Assembly (NCBI GenBank): GCA_023421075.1
Contig: JAEZUM010000046.1
Location: 16,768 to 80,767 of the forward strand
Length of the DNA: 64,000 nt
Source: Bacillota bacterium
GTDB lineage: Bacteria > Bacillota > Clostridia > Lachnospirales > Lachnospiraceae
Reading direction: 5' to 3'
Position 1 is the stretch's first letter, and every line of letters begins with the position of its first letter. A model generated the notes under the pieces. That model worked only from the letters and a program-made list of their open reading frames with translations. It did no database searches and was not told the DNA's origin. Made by a program: the position numbers and the translations under genes. Shown piece by piece: positions 5,936-55,931 of the stretch.

Positions 5936-6541
5936 TTAGTTTACTACATATATCCTGTCACTAAAGCTCTGAAGCAGCTTATAATCATCCGAACCGATCA
6001 ATACAATCTTTTCATCCTTCGCATATTTGTTCAGAAAAATCATGATTTTTCTTCGATCACTTGTTTTAAAACTTTCCATAAATGCATCCAGAAGGATTAA
6101 GGTCTTTTCTTTTAAAAACAAGCTAACGAGCTTTACCTTCCTGCGATCAATCTCTTTCAGATAATTAATCCCGGTATTGATATAGCGAAGTAATCCGAAT
6201 TCCTTTAACAGCATTCTCTTCCGATCCTCGTAGCCTTCGTCTACCGCTTGATCCATAGTCCCGAAGAAATCCAGGAAATCATTCACCGAAAGCTCTGTAT
6301 TAATGATCGAATCCTTCGTTATCACAGCAATATTATTGATATATTCCTCATAACTGCCCTTCATGCTTATCATATCCAGCACCACATCACCATCAAAGTG
6401 CTCTAATCCGGATAGCAAAGAAATCAATTCATTCTTTTTATCTCCGTAGAGACCGGCCAAGGTACAATTATCAATATCCATTGATATCCCTTTTGACTCC
6501 CCGGGAAGATCCTGCATATTTTTTACTCTTATATTAAGCAC
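5936..6541 (-). CDS. orphan ABC-ATPase homologue with all catalytic motifs degenerate
   Basis: 201 aa with a GTG start after GGAG. It aligns collinearly by eye with ABC nucleotide-binding domains, but Walker A reads GLYGDKKNE, the signature motif reads LKEID (for LSGGQ), Walker B reads ILLDAF (no catalytic Glu) and the H-loop reads GSDD. No permease gene is adjacent. Confidence 0.6.
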   Translation of the reverse strand: MLNIRVKNMQDLPGESKGISMDIDNCTLAGLYGDKKNELISLLSGLEHFDGDVVLDMISMKGSYEEYINNIAVITKDSIINTELSVNDFLDFFGTMDQAVDEGYEDRKRMLLKEFGLLRYINTGINYLKEIDRRKVKLVSLFLKEKTLILLDAFMESFKTSDRRKIMIFLNKYAKDEKIVLIGSDDYKLLQSFSDRIYVVN

Positions 6542-6732: not shown

Positions 6733-6773
6733 GAGAAAAAGGAAGATAACACATTTAATCGTGTTATCTTCCT
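6733..6773 (-). terminator. rho-independent terminator closing the agr cassette
   Basis: 13-bp perfect stem (6740..6752 / 6761..6773) with an 8-nt loop, followed on the minus strand by TTTTTCTCC. Confidence 0.7.
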
Positions 6774-6845
6774 CCTTCAGACCTTATTCCTTTCATTTCT
6801 GATGATCAACAGCCTATCTTCAGGCATATCTATAACTAGCTTTCG

Positions 6846-7025
6846 TTAACCCAGCTTTTTGCTTAATTGCTTCAGGTTAACCTCCTTCAAGTTCTCCGGT
6901 TGCTTGGGCTCATACAAAATCAGGATGCATTCATCAAGACCATTCTCTCACGAGGTTAATGATGATGACAAAACCTTTTTGCATAAGATGGATGACAGAC
7001 TACTCTTTTCTTTCTTGTTTTTCAT
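6846..7025 (-). pseudogene. agrD: agrD-like cyclic autoinducing-peptide precursor, frame interrupted by an in-frame TGA at codon 26
   Basis: My own translation. GGAGGG-N6-ATG (7025), then MKNKKEKSSLSSILCKKVLSSSLTS, TGA (6950..6948), ENGLDECILILYEPKQPENLKEVNLKQLSKKLG, TAA (6848..6846). CILIL followed by YEPKxPExL is the AgrD hallmark seen in clostridial homologues. There is no in-frame start codon between the TGA and the Cys. Confidence 0.55.
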
Positions 7026-7081
7026 TACTTACCCTCCATTATTTATATTTTTTGACAAATGAATTCATAACAACAGAAGTG

Positions 7082-7684
7082 TTATTCGAATCCGTTGTCA
7101 TGAATCCGATTGTTTGGTAATAAAAATATTCCTTCCAATAATAAGGCCAAAACACCAAGTATAACAAAACTGCCAAAAGCATTTAAGAATAGTATCCCAA
7201 CCAGCAAGATACTTCCTTCGATTCCTGCAATCCACAATGATCTCTTCCTATGCCATTCGCGTGTCTCGGTGGATAATCTGCGTCCGGGCGAACTGGCCGG
7301 TGCCCGCATATAAATTAGAAAACAAGCTGTTAGGAGCAGGATAAAGGTGATCAATTTCCAATTAGTCAATAATGCCAATCCCTTTGATAGCCAAATGATT
7401 GATGTCATTATTAAAAGTGATATTATCAAGCACCCTCCCCTTGTCTTCAAGTGAATACCACCCGCATATTTGCGCAAGGGTCCATAGAATAACGCAAAAA
7501 CGATTGCCTCCCCGGGGACCCGAAGGACAATCGCAACGATGCTGAAAATGATTATGTTGAAAATATTTGAAAGGTACCTTTCCAAGGAATACGCATAGAT
7601 ATCCCGGTACTCCATATCAAGCTTGAAATTTGAAGATACATTCGTAATAATTCTATCTGCGATCAATTTATATATCATAAGCAT
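7082..7684 (-). CDS. agrB: AgrB-family autoinducer-processing membrane peptidase
   Basis: 200 aa with multiple TM helices. RKYAGGIHLKTRGGC places His and Cys 7 residues apart, as in the catalytic H77/C84 pair of S. aureus AgrB. Confidence 0.8.
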   Translation of the reverse strand: MLMIYKLIADRIITNVSSNFKLDMEYRDIYAYSLERYLSNIFNIIIFSIVAIVLRVPGEAIVFALFYGPLRKYAGGIHLKTRGGCLIISLLIMTSIIWLSKGLALLTNWKLITFILLLTACFLIYMRAPASSPGRRLSTETREWHRKRSLWIAGIEGSILLVGILFLNAFGSFVILGVLALLLEGIFLLPNNRIHDNGFE

Positions 7685-7736
7685 TCACTCCTTAAGATAT
7701 GAAACCAATGGATATTCCTCTGCAGTTTTTAATTAT

Positions 7737-8465
7737 TTATATCTGTGGAAATTCGAGATATCTTCTTTTAACTTCCTTTGCATAAGTTCGGCCAACGGGA
7801 AATTCTTCCCCTGTCTTCATCTGAAGAAGATGTTTCTTTAGCTGAGCAACTTCTGAAAGATTTACAATAATACCTTGGTTAATCCGCAAAAAATTATCTT
7901 CCAATCGCTCCGATAATGATGTTATAGTCTCATACACAAAATGCTTTGAGGATTTGGTGACGATAACACTCTGCGAATCATTTCGCTCTATGTACAGGAT
8001 ACTGGATTGATTTATTTTCTTCTTTAGATTATCCTCTGTAATGATGAAGGGAGATCTTTGCTTTCGATAGTTAAGATCATTAACCTGAAGAACGGCTTTC
8101 TTGAATATCCGCTCCAACCGCTCAGGATCTACCGGCTTAATAATAAAACTGAAGGCTTCCACATTAAATGCATCATAAGCAAATTCTTTATGTCCTGTAA
8201 TAAAAATCGTTAGAACTCTCGGGTTTTTCTTAAGCATTAAGGATGCAGTCTGAATGCCATTCAGACCATTCATGCTTTTTAGATCAATATCCATAAAAAT
8301 AATATCGATCTCTTCCTTATTCATGTATTCCAGGACGGCTTCTCCATTTGTAAAGCCCATAATATTGGCTTCTATTCTATACTTTTTGGATAATTCCTCG
8401 ATATAGGTACAGTTTATCTTTAGAGGAATACTCTCATCCTCACAAACAGCAATACTTAGTTTCAT
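7737..8465 (-). CDS. agrA: LytTR-family response regulator (AgrA-like)
   Basis: 242 aa. Receiver domain (CEDE..., IIFMDIDL) plus a C-terminal LytTR-type DNA-binding domain. It sits between the HPK10 kinase and agrB. Confidence 0.85.
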   Translation of the reverse strand: MKLSIAVCEDESIPLKINCTYIEELSKKYRIEANIMGFTNGEAVLEYMNKEEIDIIFMDIDLKSMNGLNGIQTASLMLKKNPRVLTIFITGHKEFAYDAFNVEAFSFIIKPVDPERLERIFKKAVLQVNDLNYRKQRSPFIITEDNLKKKINQSSILYIERNDSQSVIVTKSSKHFVYETITSLSERLEDNFLRINQGIIVNLSEVAQLKKHLLQMKTGEEFPVGRTYAKEVKRRYLEFPQI

Positions 8466-8508
8466 GAATTTACCCCTTTATCCGAATCTCAAATCACGAA
8501 CAGACCTA

Positions 8509-9822
8509 TTAAATTGGCATTATGATACGCAGCTGAAAGACCTCATCATCATAATTAAAATGAACCTCACCTTTGTATTTCGCAACAATGTCTCTTATAT
8601 TTTCTGTACCGATTCCATGTAAGTGTGTATTATCTTTACTGGATAGAAATTTGCCTTTTCTCATCACAGGCTTTACCCCAATCGAATTCTCACATTGTAT
8701 GATACATCCTCTATCCGTCTTCTGTAACGAAAAATCAATAAATTTCTTATTCATGGATTTTTCAGCCGCTTCGATTGCATTATCCAAAATATTACCGAAC
8801 AGCGCACAAACATCTCGATCCTGCATAGAGATCCCGGATGCTGCGATAAAGCTTTGAAATTCAATATTCAGTTCCTTTGCTTTTTCTTTCTTTGCATTCA
8901 ACAGTACGGACAGAGCCTTATTCTCAGCAACAATGATATCATTCGCCTTGGCAACATCTCCATACAGATCATCTACATACTCTTTAAGCTCAGTTATCTT
9001 TTGTTCATCAACCAGATTTTTGATCAGACCAATATGGTTATTCATATCGTGTCTTAATTTACGAAGATTATCGGTTATATTAATCATATCATTATTCTGT
9101 TTGAGTTCCAACTCGATTTTCTGCAGCTTCAGCTGAGTCTGCAGCTCTTTTCGGGATTCCCGCTCCATTTTGAAGACCAATAAAAAGGTGATAATCTCAA
9201 TAATTAATACCAATCCGAATAAAAATTGAACAATAGTGTCTAAGTCAATATTAGCGTTATTCAAATTAAAAAACACAACCACACTGCCGATCACCAAGAC
9301 AACATTGGATACTACCAAAATACTAAGATTTTTATGTGCAGATTCCTTGATCTGTAATTTTGCTCGTCTTCTCCTGATAAACAGTTCAAATAAGATGAGG
9401 GTAACGACCTTCGTGGCAAGAGTTGCCGTATTATTGATAACTGCATTGTTTTGAATCTCTTCCAGTGATATCTTTAAAACTAATGTCATAAATGTTATGG
9501 TTACGAGTTCCATAATAATTAATCCAATATAATAGACACCCCACCAGATCAGCTTCTCAAAAAAGGGACCCTTGAACAACCAAATGGCAGCAACAAAGGT
9601 GTATAGAATGATAACAACGCTTCCATATCCCCTTAAATTCTCCATAAAAGACAGGTCAAATACAATTCCCTTAATAATCAATAATACAAAGATAAGAGAT
9701 GCAGCTATACCATATATTTTTTTGCTGTATTTTAATTCCAGCATATTAGTCATCAATCGATACCATATATAAGCCTCAATGACTTGATTCGCATGATCAT
9801 AGATAAATAATAATAAGTTCAT
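8509..9822 (-). CDS. agrC: AgrC-like (HPK10) membrane sensor histidine kinase
   Basis: 437 aa. About 6 N-terminal TM helices, H-box LRKLRHDMNNH, N-box FGNILDNAIEA and G-box HGIGTENI. GGGGGA Shine-Dalgarno upstream. Confidence 0.8.
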   Translation of the reverse strand: MNLLLFIYDHANQVIEAYIWYRLMTNMLELKYSKKIYGIAASLIFVLLIIKGIVFDLSFMENLRGYGSVVIILYTFVAAIWLFKGPFFEKLIWWGVYYIGLIIMELVTITFMTLVLKISLEEIQNNAVINNTATLATKVVTLILFELFIRRRRAKLQIKESAHKNLSILVVSNVVLVIGSVVVFFNLNNANIDLDTIVQFLFGLVLIIEIITFLLVFKMERESRKELQTQLKLQKIELELKQNNDMINITDNLRKLRHDMNNHIGLIKNLVDEQKITELKEYVDDLYGDVAKANDIIVAENKALSVLLNAKKEKAKELNIEFQSFIAASGISMQDRDVCALFGNILDNAIEAAEKSMNKKFIDFSLQKTDRGCIIQCENSIGVKPVMRKGKFLSSKDNTHLHGIGTENIRDIVAKYKGEVHFNYDDEVFQLRIIMPI

Positions 9823-10041
9823 ATGTAATCCCCCAGTACGTCAATGTAATCACTAATTCATATCAATAGTAAATACTTACTATAAATCTATCATATTATG
9901 ACAAATTTAGCAATTCACATATCTACCAAATATCATACTATCATCAGAAAATTTTGTAATAAACATGTTTAAAGAGAAGCAAAAATATCGCCTTCCCTCT
10001 CCTCCTATATTAAGTATACAGAATGGTGCCACCGGACAAAC

Positions 10042-10081
10042 GGATAAGGGCAGACAACCTTGCGGATGTCTGCCCTTATCC
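10042..10081 (-). terminator. terminator hairpin after sigG
   Basis: 14-bp GC-rich stem GGATAAGGGCAGAC / GTCTGCCCTTATCC, 47 nt downstream of the sigG stop. The tail on the minus strand (GTTTGTCC) is only moderately U-rich. Confidence 0.5.
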
Positions 10082-10127
10082 TTACTCTATATGAATCAAT
10101 TCATCGATAGATGAAATGATTACCCTC

Positions 10128-10907
10128 CTAAGAAATTAGATAGTTTCTCATATTTTTTAAAGCTGATTTTTCCAATCTGCTTACCTGAGCCTGAGATATA
10201 TTAATCTCCTTCGCTACCTCCATCTGTGTCTTTCCCTCAAAGAACCGGAGTTTAATAATATTGTGCTCTCGCGCCGACAGTTTATCCATCGCTTCCTTCA
10301 ACGATATTTCCTCGATCCAGTTCTCCTCCTTGTTTTTCTTATCACTAACCTGATCCATGATATACAAGGCATCACCGCCTTCGACATATACCGGATCATA
10401 CAGTGATACAGGACTCTGAATTGCATCCAGTGCATAAACAATATCCTCTTTGCTGATACCAATCTCAGCAGCAATCTCGCTGATGGTGGGCTCCTTTTCG
10501 TTGCGCTTCACCAAAGCCTCCTTCGCATAGATTGCTTTATAAGCAGTATCCCGAAGGGATCGGCTGACTCTTATCGCATTATTATCTCTCAGGTATCTGC
10601 GTATCTCACCGATTATCATCGGGACAGCATAAGTAGAGAATTTTACATTCTGTGTTATATCAAAATTATCAATCGCCTTCATCAGACCGATACAGCCAAT
10701 TTGAAATAAATCATCGACGTTTTCATTGCTGCCTGAGAATCTCTGGATTATGGAAAGTACTAATCTCAGATTTCCTTTAATATAGAGTTCCCTCGCCTCC
10801 TTATCGCCATTTAATATTTTCTGAAACAATTCTTCCTTTTCATTATTTTTTAGTAATGGCAATTTAGATGTATTAACCCCGCAAATCTCAACCTTATAAA
10901 GAGCCAT
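10128..10907 (-). CDS. sigG: sporulation sigma factor SigG
   Basis: 259 aa. It matches B. subtilis SigG along the whole length as I remember it (KVEICGV.TSKLP.LKN, NLRLVLS.IQRF, FSTYAVPMIIGEIRRYLRDNN). Confidence 0.93.
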   Translation of the reverse strand: MALYKVEICGVNTSKLPLLKNNEKEELFQKILNGDKEARELYIKGNLRLVLSIIQRFSGSNENVDDLFQIGCIGLMKAIDNFDITQNVKFSTYAVPMIIGEIRRYLRDNNAIRVSRSLRDTAYKAIYAKEALVKRNEKEPTISEIAAEIGISKEDIVYALDAIQSPVSLYDPVYVEGGDALYIMDQVSDKKNKEENWIEEISLKEAMDKLSAREHNIIKLRFFEGKTQMEVAKEINISQAQVSRLEKSALKNMRNYLIS

Positions 10908-11008
10908 ATCGAAACCTCCGAATCATTCATTTTCTCTATAAAATGATTCACGTTTTAGCTCCTGTTTATACGATAAACTGATAAGAAATAATTACCATTT
11001 CTCAAATA

Positions 11009-11749
11009 TTACTCGAAGCGTACCATTTCTTTCTTCAATCGCTTAATAATCTTCTTTTCCAGTCTTGATATATAAGATTGAGATATTCCAAGTAAATCAG
11101 CAACTTCCTTTTGGGTCCGCTCAATGCCGTCATCGGTATTTAGACCAAAGCGAAGATCTACGATAATTCGTTCCCGATCGGATAACTTTGACAAGGCTCT
11201 TCGTAGTAATTTGCGATCTACTTCCTCTTCAATATTACGATAGATAACATCCTCTTCCGTACCCAGAATGTCCGATAAAAGCAATTCGTTTCCATCCCAA
11301 TCTACATTTAAGGGTTCATCAATGGAAACCTCAAGCTTTGTCTTATTATTTCTTCGAAGATACATTAAAATCTCATTCTCAATACACCTTGAGGCATAGG
11401 TTGCAAGCTTAATATTTTTATCCGGGTTGAAGGTATTAATTGCCTTGATCAGGCCAATGGTTCCGATAGAGATCAGGTCCTCAACTCCGACTCCGGTATT
11501 ATCAAACTTTTTTGCTATGTATACTACAAGCCTAAGATTGTGCTCGACCAGGATTGATTTCATCTCACCGTCGCGCTCCGTTCCCAGCTCATTAATCACT
11601 TCCGCTTCTCTGACCGGATCCAATGGCGGAGGCAATACCTCTGCACCACCAATGTAATGGATTTCACCTTTATGCCCAAATATGATAGTTCGTATGTCCG
11701 GGATCATCCGAAATTGGAACTTGTTCTGTATCGATAACTTTAAAAGCAT
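11009..11749 (-). CDS. sigE: sporulation sigma factor SigE (pro-sigma-E)
   Basis: 246 aa. Pro-sequence followed by [24 protein letters not shown] and [21 protein letters not shown]. Located directly downstream of spoIIGA. Confidence 0.93.
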
Positions 11750-11784
11750 AATAAACCTCCCATATTTATCTTTATGATTGCGTG

Positions 11785-12759
11785 CTAAGAGTATAAAAGC
11801 TCTTTATGTAAAATCACATGATATTCTTCTTTCGAGGATAAGCTGTTCTCGGATATTGCCGCTGTTATTTTACGACAATACATTGTTTCCTTCCCCGTAT
11901 GTATCACCAACTGATCCAGCATTAATCCAAACATCATACCCTGTGCTTTTCCGATGGACGAATAAGGAATGATCCGAAGCCGTAAAAGCAGCTTCTTCAA
12001 ATCCTCGGATTGATCCAGGGATGCCGCCATTACTTCTTCCATCCCAATGCCCGAAAGGTAATTCTTTGTATTCTCAAACTCCTCCAGAAATTCCTTCGTC
12101 AATAGCTCCTCAATGACAGAACGCTCGATGACAATGACGGGCTTATGATACAAGGGATCATACAGGCAATTCCCTGTATCAAAGAGACCTTTTGTATGAA
12201 TGCTTCGCCCTTCCAGAGTCAATTCGATATCATAAATATCCTTTTCTTTTCGCCGATATATACGCCACAAGTACATTAAAATGATAGTCAGAATAACTAC
12301 AATTACCATAGCTATAGCAACGAAACCCACTGATATATCGCTAAACAAAATCGAATCTCCCAAATCCAACAAATTCAGCCTAAACCCAGTGTTATAATAA
12401 ATTGAGTTCATCAAACCACCTACAAAATATGTAATTAAGCAGAAACTAATCCCCTGCTTCAACAGATCAGTCCATTTCAGCCTGCCAAAGGCAATCAGTA
12501 GCATCAGTGGTATTACGGCAATCTTAACCGATGTCCCAAGCACTTTTATCATAAATGCAGAAGGAAAGAGATCGGTCAAGGAATTCACCCAAGGTATCAG
12601 GCTGATTAGTACTGCAGAGCATCCCCCTGTGATTGCCGCCAGACAAAGGCGAATGATACCGGATCGCTTCCGATTCACCACCTTGACTAGCAGTAGCAGA
12701 ATAAAATCTATAAAGAAATTAAGGATAAATACAATATCCGGATAAATCTCAAGATACAA
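11785..12759 (-). CDS. spoIIGA: sigma-E processing aspartic peptidase SpoIIGA
   Basis: 324 aa. Five N-terminal TM helices and the GLFDTGN active-site motif. TTG start 4 nt after GGAGGTG. Confidence 0.88.
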
Positions 12760-49353: not shown

Positions 49354-49541
49354 CATCTTCATCTTGTGTCTCCATCTCGTGTCTCCATCTTGTGTCTTTA
49401 TCTCGTGTCTCCATCTTGTGTCTTCATCTCGTGTCTTCTTCTGTGTCTTCATCTGTGTCTTCATCTTGTGTCTTCATCTGTGTCTTCATCTGTGACCTCA
49501 TCTTGTATCTTCATCTGTGACCTCACCCCGTGCCCCATCTT
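49354..49541. repeat. imperfect tandem repeat, about 14 units of 12 or 13 nt (plus-strand unit GTGTCTYCATCT[Y])
   Basis: Units were read directly. There are five 13-nt units from 49366 to 49430, then mixed 12- and 13-nt units up to about 49529. The comEC stop codon (49461..49463) lies inside unit 8. Confidence 0.85.
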
Positions 49542-51884
49542 CCGGAATTCACTAATCTCAAGCATCTCACCATCGGTTGATAAAGTAATCGCTCCGCTCT
49601 TGTAAGTAATAAGAGCAATACTTGACACAGCGTCTAATCGTTCCAATAATTCAACATGGGGATGTCCATACCGGTTCTCCTTACTGCAGGAGATCACGGA
49701 ATAATCCGGCTTTATTAATTTGAGCAGTTCCTCCCCGGTCGAGTATTTCGAGCCGTGATGCGCCACCTTAAGTACCTCATAATCAATGGCAGGGGCTGTT
49801 CCGAACTCCTTTTGTAGCCTAACCTCCTTCAATTCCTCTATTAGCTTTTTCTCACCCTCAGCCTCCAGATCTCCTGTTAACAGCATATCAAAACCACCAT
49901 AATTTACGCGAAGTACTGTCGAATAGGAATTCGCAGTGGAGCCGATAAACCCAGTGGAGGGATGCAGGCAATCAATATGAAGCAAGCCTTCCTGTATCCT
50001 GTCTCCTGCCGCGATATATTGTAGATTTATATTCTTAATCGACGCCAAATCCACCAGTTCCATATATTTCTCATCCTTATCTGCCAGATCAGGGAGAAGC
50101 AATGTTTCGATTGTGAACTCATTCTCCTTCACCATCTCAACGATACCCGATATATGATCGCGATCCGGGTGGGTAATGATTGCATAATCCAGTCGATCTA
50201 CCCCCTTCGATTTTAGAAAAGGAACAATCCGATACTTACCGACTTGTCCGGTACTTGAGCTACCACCATCAATCAGAAAGGAGGTTCCTTCTCTGTTCTC
50301 CATAAAAATCGCATCACCCTGTCCGACATCGAGTAAAGTCACCTCAAGTCCAGGGTTATAGTGAGGTGAAAATAAGATCAGTTGTGAAGCCAACAGTAAT
50401 AGAAGCGTCCACTTCTTTTTGTATTTTTTTGCTGCCAGAATAAAGGATAGCATGCATAAAAACGATAAGATAATTATGAATTGTTTGGGTTTTCCAACCG
50501 TAATCATATGAAAGGGTAAATGTCGAACCCCCTCACAGATCAGGTCATAAAGCTTCAATATATAATTGGAGCCGCCAATTGCAAATACTCCGGCTTGGTC
50601 AGAAACCATACCAAGAAACCCCGCGAGAATTGAATTCATTGTCAACACAGATACGAAAGGAAGAATCATCAGATTGGTTATCACACCATAAAGGGGATAT
50701 TGATAGAAAAAGTACAGAATGATCGGGCTTGTCGTAAGCATTGCACTAAAGCTGATTAAAAGACCATTCTTTATCTTGTTGTTACCCGGAAATAGTTGTT
50801 TTAGAATTGGCAACAGAACAGCAATTCCAATCACTGCAAGAAAGGATAATAAAAAGCCTGTACTGATCAACTGGAAAGGATTTTGAAGCAGGATAAGCAA
50901 TGCACTCAAGGCTGCTGCCGATATCATATCATAGGTTTTTCCCGCCAGAGTAGCAAACAGCAGAACCATCAACATAACAACCGCTCGATTTGTTGATACG
51001 CTGAAATTAGTCATCACACCGTAGCTATAGATAACGAGTACTGTAATCAATGTTGCAGCGTGTAGAGATAGTCTGCATTTTCGCAGCAGCCAGAAGGTAC
51101 TCATGCCGATCAGTGATACATGCAGTCCTGATATGGCCAAGATATGCGAGATACCGTTTTCCTGATACAGCTGCTTCACTTCATCCTCGATAAGATATTT
51201 CTCCCCTAGGAGCATGGCCGTTAATGTGCCTGCCTCTCTATTATTCAGACTATCATGATAGACCTGCATCAAACTTTTTTTGACCTGATCCAAGAAAGCA
51301 GCATAATAAGAATAACCATCATCCGAGACAATGATCTGCTCCGCCATAAGTTTAAAATCAATATTTAATGCTTTATAATAGTTTTCTTCATTGAATTGGC
51401 CGGGATTTGTCGGCTTTTGAAATTTTTGTAAAGAGCCTTGAACGGTAATCTGATTACCGATCCGGTAGATTTGATCATTGGATAGATAGATAATTACACT
51501 TTCACAGGGATAATTCTCCCCGTTTCCAATCGCGATTTGATTATTAACAACATATAGTATTTGGCCCTGCTGCTTCCTTACCACCATCTTTATACGACCG
51601 GTAAGCACACAGGGTACTTCTTGTTCAAATGCATAATAAAGCTTTGGTAATCTGCTTTGATCCTGCATAACCACATAACCCAGAAGCAGGAAAGCCGGTA
51701 GCAGCCAGAAGAGGACTTGTTTCTTATGAATACTCTTCTCCTTATGGTAAAGCATATCAAGGTATATAAATATATAGGCAAGAATAACCAGTGCCAGTAA
51801 TATACCGATTGCGATCTGCCTCCAGGCACTTCCGACTCCAAGCAGATAAGCCCCAAGCATCCACACCAGTGGACGTTTCGCCAA
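49461..51884 (-). CDS. comEC: DNA internalisation competence protein ComEC/Rec2
   Basis: 807 aa. Polytopic competence domain plus a C-terminal MBL domain (LDVGQGD, HPDRDH, AHHGS). The last ~20 aa (QDEVTDEDTDEDTR) are encoded by the tandem repeat. Confidence 0.9.
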   Translation of the reverse strand: MAKRPLVWMLGAYLLGVGSAWRQIAIGILLALVILAYIFIYLDMLYHKEKSIHKKQVLFWLLPAFLLLGYVVMQDQSRLPKLYYAFEQEVPCVLTGRIKMVVRKQQGQILYVVNNQIAIGNGENYPCESVIIYLSNDQIYRIGNQITVQGSLQKFQKPTNPGQFNEENYYKALNIDFKLMAEQIIVSDDGYSYYAAFLDQVKKSLMQVYHDSLNNREAGTLTAMLLGEKYLIEDEVKQLYQENGISHILAISGLHVSLIGMSTFWLLRKCRLSLHAATLITVLVIYSYGVMTNFSVSTNRAVVMLMVLLFATLAGKTYDMISAAALSALLILLQNPFQLISTGFLLSFLAVIGIAVLLPILKQLFPGNNKIKNGLLISFSAMLTTSPIILYFFYQYPLYGVITNLMILPFVSVLTMNSILAGFLGMVSDQAGVFAIGGSNYILKLYDLICEGVRHLPFHMITVGKPKQFIIILSFLCMLSFILAAKKYKKKWTLLLLLASQLILFSPHYNPGLEVTLLDVGQGDAIFMENREGTSFLIDGGSSSTGQVGKYRIVPFLKSKGVDRLDYAIITHPDRDHISGIVEMVKENEFTIETLLLPDLADKDEKYMELVDLASIKNINLQYIAAGDRIQEGLLHIDCLHPSTGFIGSTANSYSTVLRVNYGGFDMLLTGDLEAEGEKKLIEELKEVRLQKEFGTAPAIDYEVLKVAHHGSKYSTGEELLKLIKPDYSVISCSKENRYGHPHVELLERLDAVSSIALITYKSGAITLSTDGEMLEISEFRKMGHGVRSQMKIQDEVTDEDTDEDTR

Positions 51885-55085: not shown

Positions 55086-55199
55086 TCTATTATCACCTTA
55101 CGATACTTCTATACCCTGACGATAATCAATAATACCTGAGATAATAATATTACCTTACGGTAATAATATCACCTTACGGTAATAATATCACCTTACGGT
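55086..55199. repeat. six tandem 19-nt units (minus-strand unit ACCGTAAGGTGATATTATT)
   Basis: Units are at 55181, 55162 and 55143 (identical or one mismatch) and at 55124, 55105 and 55086 (progressively diverged). The first unit contains the last three codons and the stop codon of comEA. Confidence 0.85.
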
Positions 55200-55931
55200 G
55201 ATATAGGGGGAGACCTTATTAAAAAGTCCTTCCTTAATTCCCGGAATCTTCATAAGCTCTTCAATTGTCTGAAAGCTTCCGTTGGCACCTCGATATTCGA
55301 TAATAGAGGCTGCTTTCGCTTCCCCGATACCGGGTAACTCCATCAATTCCTTAGCGTCTGCCAGATTGATATTGATACGTTTCTCATCAGTGGATGCTTC
55401 CGGGCTATTGCTCTCTTGTGTTAGAGTGTCACTCGTGAATGGCAGCTCCTTTACCTCCTCCTTCGAAGGAATATAAATTCGCTGTCCATCACTGACCTTA
55501 ACTGCCTGATTAATATAATCGCCGGCCGCTTCCTTCGTAAGTCCTCCGGCAAGTGCAACAAGATCTATCACTCTTGCACCTTCATCCGCTTCGTAGACAC
55601 CCGGATTGATTACCTCTCCGCATATATGAACATAAATAATATGAACTTCCACTCCACTTGCCTTCGTATTCTCCTTGGAAGCTTCTATTTTCATGGATGC
55701 TTCTGAATGCGCCGAAGTCTTCTCCTTCTCCAACCCCGATACCTTATCAGAATTTTCTCTTTCATCTGCGCCTGTTAGTCCCTCTGCATACTGTGATGTA
55801 TCGGACGCATCGGTTCTTGTTGTTATCAATTCTGCATGGGATTGATTCTCCTCGTAGGAACAACTATAACAGATTCCCGAGATTAATAACAGAGCACAGG
55901 TAATCCCTATCATGACATAATTTTTCTTCAT
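55188..55931 (-). CDS. comEA: competence protein ComEA (DNA receptor)
   Basis: 247 aa. N-terminal TM helix, an SLBB-like region, and a C-terminal tandem helix-hairpin-helix (LMELPGIGEAKAASII ... LMKIPGI). Confidence 0.85.
   Translation of the reverse strand: MKKNYVMIGITCALLLISGICYSCSYEENQSHAELITTRTDASDTSQYAEGLTGADERENSDKVSGLEKEKTSAHSEASMKIEASKENTKASGVEVHIIYVHICGEVINPGVYEADEGARVIDLVALAGGLTKEAAGDYINQAVKVSDGQRIYIPSKEEVKELPFTSDTLTQESNSPEASTDEKRININLADAKELMELPGIGEAKAASIIEYRGANGSFQTIEELMKIPGIKEGLFNKVSPYITVR

Follow-up and report, generated by a model that had tools for sequence, protein, structure and literature searches.

A probable strain-specific nonsense allele of agrD in the clostridial-type agr operon of a Herbinix-like Lachnospiraceae bacterium

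Is an autoinducer precursor gene that is split by an in-frame stop codon a broken gene, a sequencing error or a gene read in an unusual way, and what does the split mean for the quorum sensing system to which the gene belongs? This question is raised by the agr locus in the 64-kb stretch of DNA analysed here (referred to as the window), the host of which is a spore-forming, Herbinix-like member of the Lachnospiraceae. In the initial annotation, three explanations were offered, i.e. loss of the signal gene by a nonsense mutation in a strain that still has its genes for processing and sensing, a base-call error, or low-level UGA read-through that sets the signal dose. Here, we suggest that the window very probably carries a strain-specific agrD allele that is signal-null or at most leaky within a standard clostridial-type agr system, and that this strain probably makes no signal and may still sense it.

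Re-reading of the sequence confirmed the frame as originally described, with its start codon, the in-frame TGA, the TAA and a GGAGGG motif six bases ahead of the ATG (Table 1). On the minus strand, the agrD frame extends from the ATG at 7025..7023, which is located 56 nt past the agrB stop codon on the same strand, to the TAA at 6848..6846. It comprises 59-60 codons and reads MKNKKEKSSLSSILCKKVLSSSLTS up to the TGA and ENGLDECILILYEPKQPENLKEVNLKQLSKKLG from there to the TAA. The six codons between the TGA and Cys33 (GAG AAT GGT CTT GAT GAA) include no ATG, GTG or TTG, also as described, and the next in-frame start codon past the TGA is the TTG of Leu37, i.e. it lies beyond Cys33.

The distal half matches the AgrD model TIGR04223 with 20.4-20.9 bits, as does the joined peptide; the margin over the curated cut-off of 19 is narrow, and the match is limited to residues 33-47 (CILILYEPKQPENLK), i.e. 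the ring and the tail. The same model is matched by 8/9 aligned family members, with a best E-value of 3.8e-5. By contrast, the Pfam AgrD model PF05931, which had also been proposed as a check, was matched by neither the window peptide nor nine relatives, even at E-values up to 1-10; PF05931 was made from staphylococcal-type sequences. Together, the TIGR04223 score of the distal half and the conserved intact gene in relatives (see below) argue that the frame is more than a chance occurrence. In clostridial AgrD proteins, the cleavage-site pattern consists of the ring, a Tyr and then a Pro five residues on (PMC5322536), and by this Y...P pattern the ring boundary would lie ahead of Tyr38. The C-terminal tail, with its 22 residues, is long and Lys-rich. 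To judge by its translation, the gene is an AgrD-type precursor with a predicted Cys-plus-four ring and a YEPKxPExL tail. The 64-kb window has no second agrD; a second agrD or agr locus elsewhere in the genome, outside these 64 kb, could be a source of signal.

Table 1. Features of the agr locus in the window (positions in the window).
Feature	Position	Strand	Evidence
agrD, AgrD-type autoinducer precursor, broken at codon 26	6846..7025	-	translation, TIGR04223, orthologues in relatives
In-frame TGA (codon 26)	6948..6950	-	replaces Leu26 TTA of relatives
C-I-L-I-L codons, residues 33-37, predicted five-membered thiolactone ring	6915..6929	-	TIGR04223 match begins at Cys33
YEPKQPENLK codons, predicted C-terminal recognition tail (AgrB-removed)	6885..6914	-	TIGR04223, residues 33-47
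Shine-Dalgarno sequence GGAGGG, 6 nt ahead of agrD ATG	7032..7037	-	sequence; kept in relatives
Intrinsic-terminator-like hairpin 3' of agrD, operon end	6735..6778	-	RNA fold
agrB, AgrD-processing membrane peptidase, intact	7082..7684	-	PF04647, E 4.4e-33
AgrA-like response regulator, receiver + LytTR, intact	7737..8465	-	PF00072, E 1.4e-15; PF04397, E 6.5e-17
AgrC-like sensor histidine kinase, polytopic N-terminus + GHKL, intact	8509..9822	-	PF14501 (HATPase_c_5), E 1.3e-22

The genes on the minus strand are arranged in the order agrC-agrA-agrB-agrD and follow spoIIGA-sigE-sigG and the sigG terminator. The hairpin at 6778..6735 has a predicted free energy of -24.7 kcal/mol (z = -6.74; 0/200 shuffled sequences fold equally well), and is absent from the list returned by a simple terminator pattern scan. 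Because it lies directly 3' of agrD, agrD is the final gene of the operon.

The three partner proteins (AgrB, kinase and LytTR regulator) all look intact. AgrB scores 114.6 bits against PF04647, differs from its 97%-identical homologue P0001 at five positions, all of them conservative, and keeps 33/33 invariant columns of a 15-member alignment. These columns include His78 and Cys85, to which a catalytic role is assigned on the basis of S. aureus AgrB. The agrB ORF could start at the ATG at 7684; in relatives and in public annotations, however, the protein begins two codons further on (MIYK..., 198 aa), and the true start is probably at 7678. The regulator has 242 aa (239-242 aa in its orthologues in relatives) and the kinase has 437 aa, the same length as in relatives. 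The kinase matches the AgrC model NF046015 partially (E 9e-15, 54.7 bits vs a cut-off of 500) and the regulator scores 30.4 bits against the AgrA model NF046049 (cut-off 400). Because these scores are far under the cut-offs, the two proteins are distant functional analogues of AgrC and AgrA and not staphylococcal equivalogs. As expected of an AgrC/AgrA pair, a polytopic GHKL kinase and a receiver-LytTR regulator are encoded in one operon. Thus, the original description of an AgrD-type precursor beside intact agrB, agrA-like and agrC-like genes is borne out by the TIGR04223 and Pfam matches and by full gene lengths.

Several observations were made on the surroundings of the operon. In several clostridia, sporulation is under the control of agr; given this control, the placement of agr right downstream of spoIIGA-sigE-sigG (6846..12759, minus strand) is suggestive. 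The sigG-agrC junction is present in all relatives with contigs that are long enough, and locus L032, described below, also carries the complete spoIIGA-sigE-sigG cluster. On the 5' side of agrC, an 81-nt non-coding block (~9866..9946, minus strand) is nearly invariant in a comparison of the window, L002/L003 and L004, in which the coding regions are just 77-81% identical; this block is likely the promoter or a regulator-binding region of the agr operon, as predicted from its conservation. At the agrC start, there is an exact 8-nt direct repeat, ATGTAATC, at 9823-9830 and 9844-9851 with a LytTR-like spacing of 21 nt; as a candidate for a regulator-binding site, it was dropped because it is not kept in L004.

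On the other side of the operon, agrD is followed, in the window and in relatives with contigs that reach far enough, by a gene for a 201-aa ABC-ATPase-like protein (5936..6541, minus strand), the orthologues of which have 201 aa in L002, L004 and L008 and 193 aa in L003. Against PF00005, this gene gives an E-value of 0.0011, under the cut-off, and the copies in relatives are without a precomputed Pfam match. By eye, the Walker A, signature and Walker B motifs look degenerate (GDKKN; LILLDAF, in which the catalytic Glu is missing). There is no neighbouring permease gene, and a nitroreductase gene is next. The protein may serve the agr locus as an ABC-like partner without catalytic activity.

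A search with AgrB returned 14 homologues, and their contigs together with a scan of a genome collection gave ten loci with agrD after agrB, i.e. three from strains of the same species as the window (97-99% DNA identity) and seven from Herbinix-like relatives at a greater distance, which represent six distinct sequences. In 10/10 of these loci, an uninterrupted gene of 55-61 codons is present at the same site after agrB. Thus, all relatives have an uninterrupted precursor consisting of leader and ring, whereas the window copy does not. In a 9-sequence alignment of AgrD, C33, E39, Q42, P43 and L46 are invariant, as are K16, L19, S20, S22 and L26 in the leader, and CILIL is identical in 7/9 sequences. 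The dN/dS ratios among relatives range from 0.08 to 0.43 in codons 1-25 and from 0.11 to 0.33 in codons 27-59. Purifying selection thus acts on either half of the frame in relatives, and the entire 59-codon ORF, therefore, represents the functional unit. Because the TGA is at codon 26 and the relatives are all intact, the window copy is a disrupted allele of an AgrD family member.

Other searches did not enlarge this set. An exact look-up of the 200-aa AgrB gave no match because public gene calls start AgrB two codons later, and a scan of genome contigs with single-sequence AgrB patterns returned no relative. An exact pattern with N at the variable base had no match among JGI metagenome contigs, and, therefore, no allele counts were added. 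A look-up with SigG for more strains at the agrD site returned only contigs that end before agrD or that belong to another species. The related contigs include L009, L034 and L035 (ENA scaffolds named LEMO22-1_SAMN17...) as well as L010-L012 and L032 (MAGs JAEYXC, JAEZFH and JAFAGA, with names in OH_); the assembly accession of L032 is GCA_023428655.1. Because these record names hint at one or few large metagenome projects, the TGA and TTA strains may come from related habitats; a literature search found no papers that mention the sample accessions. The idea that, in a single species, agr forms a divergent island with conserved sequence on both sides was rejected because L032 belongs to a different species, as evidenced by nucleotide identities to the window of 88% for sigG and 86% for ftsZ. 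Between the window and L032, amino acid identity is 55% for AgrB, 73% for AgrD, 83% for AgrC, 85% for AgrA and 100% for SigG. In other words, AgrB diverges much faster than its partner proteins, yet the predicted ring CILIL is unchanged.

Alignment with related agrD loci, as proposed in the initial annotation, revealed a sense codon for Leu at the position of the TGA. Codon 26 is TTA in L001, L002, L003, L008, L009, L010, L011 and L012 and TTG in L004, and L013 has Leu in the same invariant column, as read from the alignment. The TTA strains of the same species as the window are L001 (SRR25117342; 98.98% DNA identity over 1954 nt), L008 (SRR35947037; 98.07% over 1553 nt) and L009 (ERZ28597459; 96.9% over 612 nt). 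The change consists of a T-to-G substitution at window position 6949 (C on the plus strand, where relatives have A). This is the single base by which the agrD genes of L008 and the window differ, and the exact repaired AgrD protein occurs in public data as P0018. Because Leu is found at codon 26 in all ten loci, the TGA is a derived single-base change. No further substitutions have occurred in agrD since the stop arose (compared with L008), and the stop is confined to one strain. The TGA thus arose very recently, by a TTA-to-TGA transversion at the codon of an invariant Leu.

Is the G at position 6949 real? If it were a sequencing or consensus error in a low-coverage metagenome bin, the real genome would have TTA and an ordinary agrD. 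In line with an error, every other strain has TTA (or TTG in L004), and the coverage of the ENA contig is only ~8. However, the TGA allele was also found in L006 and L007: contig NODE_17 of ENA ERZ24910820 (208 kb) is 100% identical to the window over 9314 nt, a contig of Logan SRR13358448 is 100% identical over 7964 nt, and both have the TGA. The public records of this same AgrC stem from NCBI, ENA and Logan, and three further contigs also encode it. With the same TGA in two more public assemblies, which judged by contig naming probably come from different assemblers, an assembly slip is unlikely, even though the three assemblies, being 100% identical, may rest on one read set of modest depth (~8x). 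Moreover, the window differs from its conspecifics at 1-3% of positions, and true SNPs, therefore, far exceed plausible consensus errors. Long ORFs (translation table 11) cover 91% of the window, and poor assembly is, therefore, not indicated. Thus, the base-call error considered in the initial annotation is weakened by the two same-strain assemblies with G and retains, in our estimate, a small probability.

If the G is real, the TGA could be functional. In this scenario, low-level UGA read-through with insertion of Trp26 would keep the dose of AgrD low or make the signal depend on the fidelity of translation or the state of growth. Reporter assays in E. coli have identified TGA as the leakiest stop codon; a G at the +1 position makes termination less accurate there, and Trp is usually inserted (PMC11126739); the site in agrD reads TGA-G and matches this leaky context. 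Because the stop sits in the leader, seven residues ahead of the Cys, a read-through product could probably give a normal mature peptide, and there are reports of bacterial genes in which an in-frame stop has persisted while purifying selection acted on them (PMC7918605). However, the TGA is found in 0/10 related loci, including a strain with an otherwise identical agrD, and designed dose control is, therefore, without support. In addition, the Leu lost at codon 26 is invariant, the RNA past the stop (-7.6 kcal/mol, z = +1.05) forms no stimulatory structure, and generic leakiness is common to any fresh nonsense mutation and is no sign of design. Accordingly, the proposal that read-through sets the signal dose found no specific support, and we consider it very improbable. 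Recoding of the TGA, either as selenocysteine or by an alternative genetic code, has nothing in its favor except an in-frame TGA in a conserved gene. TGA acts as an ordinary stop codon in the window, as originally noted: it ends 9/53 ORFs of at least 150 aa, including those for ComEC (49461..51884), PriA and a ComEA-like protein (55188..55931). The homologues carry Leu at the site, neither Cys nor Sec, there is no SECIS-like hairpin past the TGA, and searches of the window for Rfam families and for tRNA genes returned nothing. Taken together, the normal TGA stops, the absence of a structure, the Leu in homologues and the absence of a tRNA exclude recoding for practical purposes. A last reading accepts the nonsense allele and adds selection for it. 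The TGA strain would then be a "silent listener" that avoids the cost of the signal and responds to the CILIL peptide of co-resident conspecifics and sister species, the ring being the same in nearly all of them, with read-through perhaps adding a low basal signal. We regard this scenario as unlikely; if true, agr would have a natural social variant that is signal-negative, in a community of environmental anaerobes.

We, therefore, favor a signal gene that was inactivated by a nonsense mutation in a strain with retained processing and sensing genes, i.e. the first of the explanations offered originally, the relatives all having Leu (TTA/TTG) at the site. In the model for the intact form, agrD would give rise to a 59-residue precursor. 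AgrB would cut this precursor past Leu37 and close a thiolactone ring (CILIL) between this residue and Cys33; the leader would be taken off and the peptide exported and then sensed by the AgrC-like kinase and the LytTR regulator. In the TGA strain, translation would end after 25 leader residues. Because no in-frame start codon precedes the Cys, the outcome would be no signal, or a trace of it by accidental UGA read-through. Because UGA is the leakiest stop codon and the site reads TGA-G, the allele may be hypomorphic instead of null. The stop has no polar effect because agrD is last in the operon. As a result, the TGA strain would be signal-negative, yet responsive to the CILIL peptide of neighbouring strains; as it probably has no autoinducer, it would not auto-activate. 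In other words, we infer that signal production was lost and that sensing was retained. Retention of sensing would have a parallel in an AIP-negative agrB mutant of C. acetobutylicum, the phenotypes of which are restored beside producers or with synthetic AIP (PMC10301443).

Thus, the TGA is an ordinary strain-specific nonsense polymorphism that involves no new mechanism, and this AgrD family member is new but unremarkable. In the annotation of this strain, agrD is to be listed as a pseudogene or as an allele disrupted by a change of Leu26 to a stop codon. Because gene callers leave the intact 59-residue peptide of the relatives nameless, it should be annotated as an AgrD-family precursor. The data also define an AgrD subfamily of Herbinix-like Lachnospiraceae that is small and well conserved and for which a CILIL thiolactone ring is predicted; this could be of use for work on quorum sensing in anaerobes that degrade biomass. 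Should the allele prove common in a population, it would be a rare natural agr variant that is signal-negative and not signal-blind.

The system described here is most similar to the agr systems of clostridia (agrBDCA in C. acetobutylicum and agrBD in C. perfringens, C. difficile and C. botulinum). As in these systems, a small AgrD is encoded beside agrB, the ring is initiated by a Cys and followed by a tail of the type Y/H-E-P-x-x-P, TIGR04223 matches, a GHKL kinase of the HPK10 type is combined with a LytTR regulator, and the host is a spore-forming Firmicute. By contrast, the gene order here is agrC-agrA-agrB-agrD, directly downstream of spoIIGA-sigE-sigG, the tail of 22 residues is long and Lys-rich, and the gene is broken in this strain. 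The initial annotation had likened the peptide to AgrD of C. acetobutylicum. This comparison is roughly apt; it is approximate because the AIP of C. acetobutylicum has been described with a six-membered ring (PMC10301443), whereas a five-membered ring (CILIL) is predicted here. A five-residue ring followed by a Tyr and a conserved Pro five residues on is found in Clo1313_2818 of C. thermocellum, also a plant-biomass-degrading anaerobe (PMC5322536). However, Clo1313_2818 encodes a peptide of the Ser lactone type and is an orphan gene without a nearby agr operon, whereas the peptide described here is of the Cys (thiolactone) type and its gene is part of a full operon.

With regard to the broken allele itself, two comparisons can be made. 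The in-frame stops that persist in bacterial genomes (PMC7918605) resemble the one described here in that a TGA is found in frame inside a conserved, otherwise intact gene; however, the stop in agrD is present in one strain only, and nothing indicates persistence or selection. The likeness to agr-defective variants of S. aureus concerns spontaneous loss-of-function point mutations that leave the operon otherwise intact and that are polymorphic between strains within a species. In S. aureus, a pathogen unlike the environmental anaerobe studied here, natural agr-inactivating mutations are overwhelmingly located in agrC and agrA and result in signal-blind strains (PMC11730646). By contrast, the signal gene is mutated here, and the strain would be signal-negative and probably still responsive. 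Mutations in the signal gene represent the less common class of agr defect; however, agrD also offers a far smaller target for mutation.
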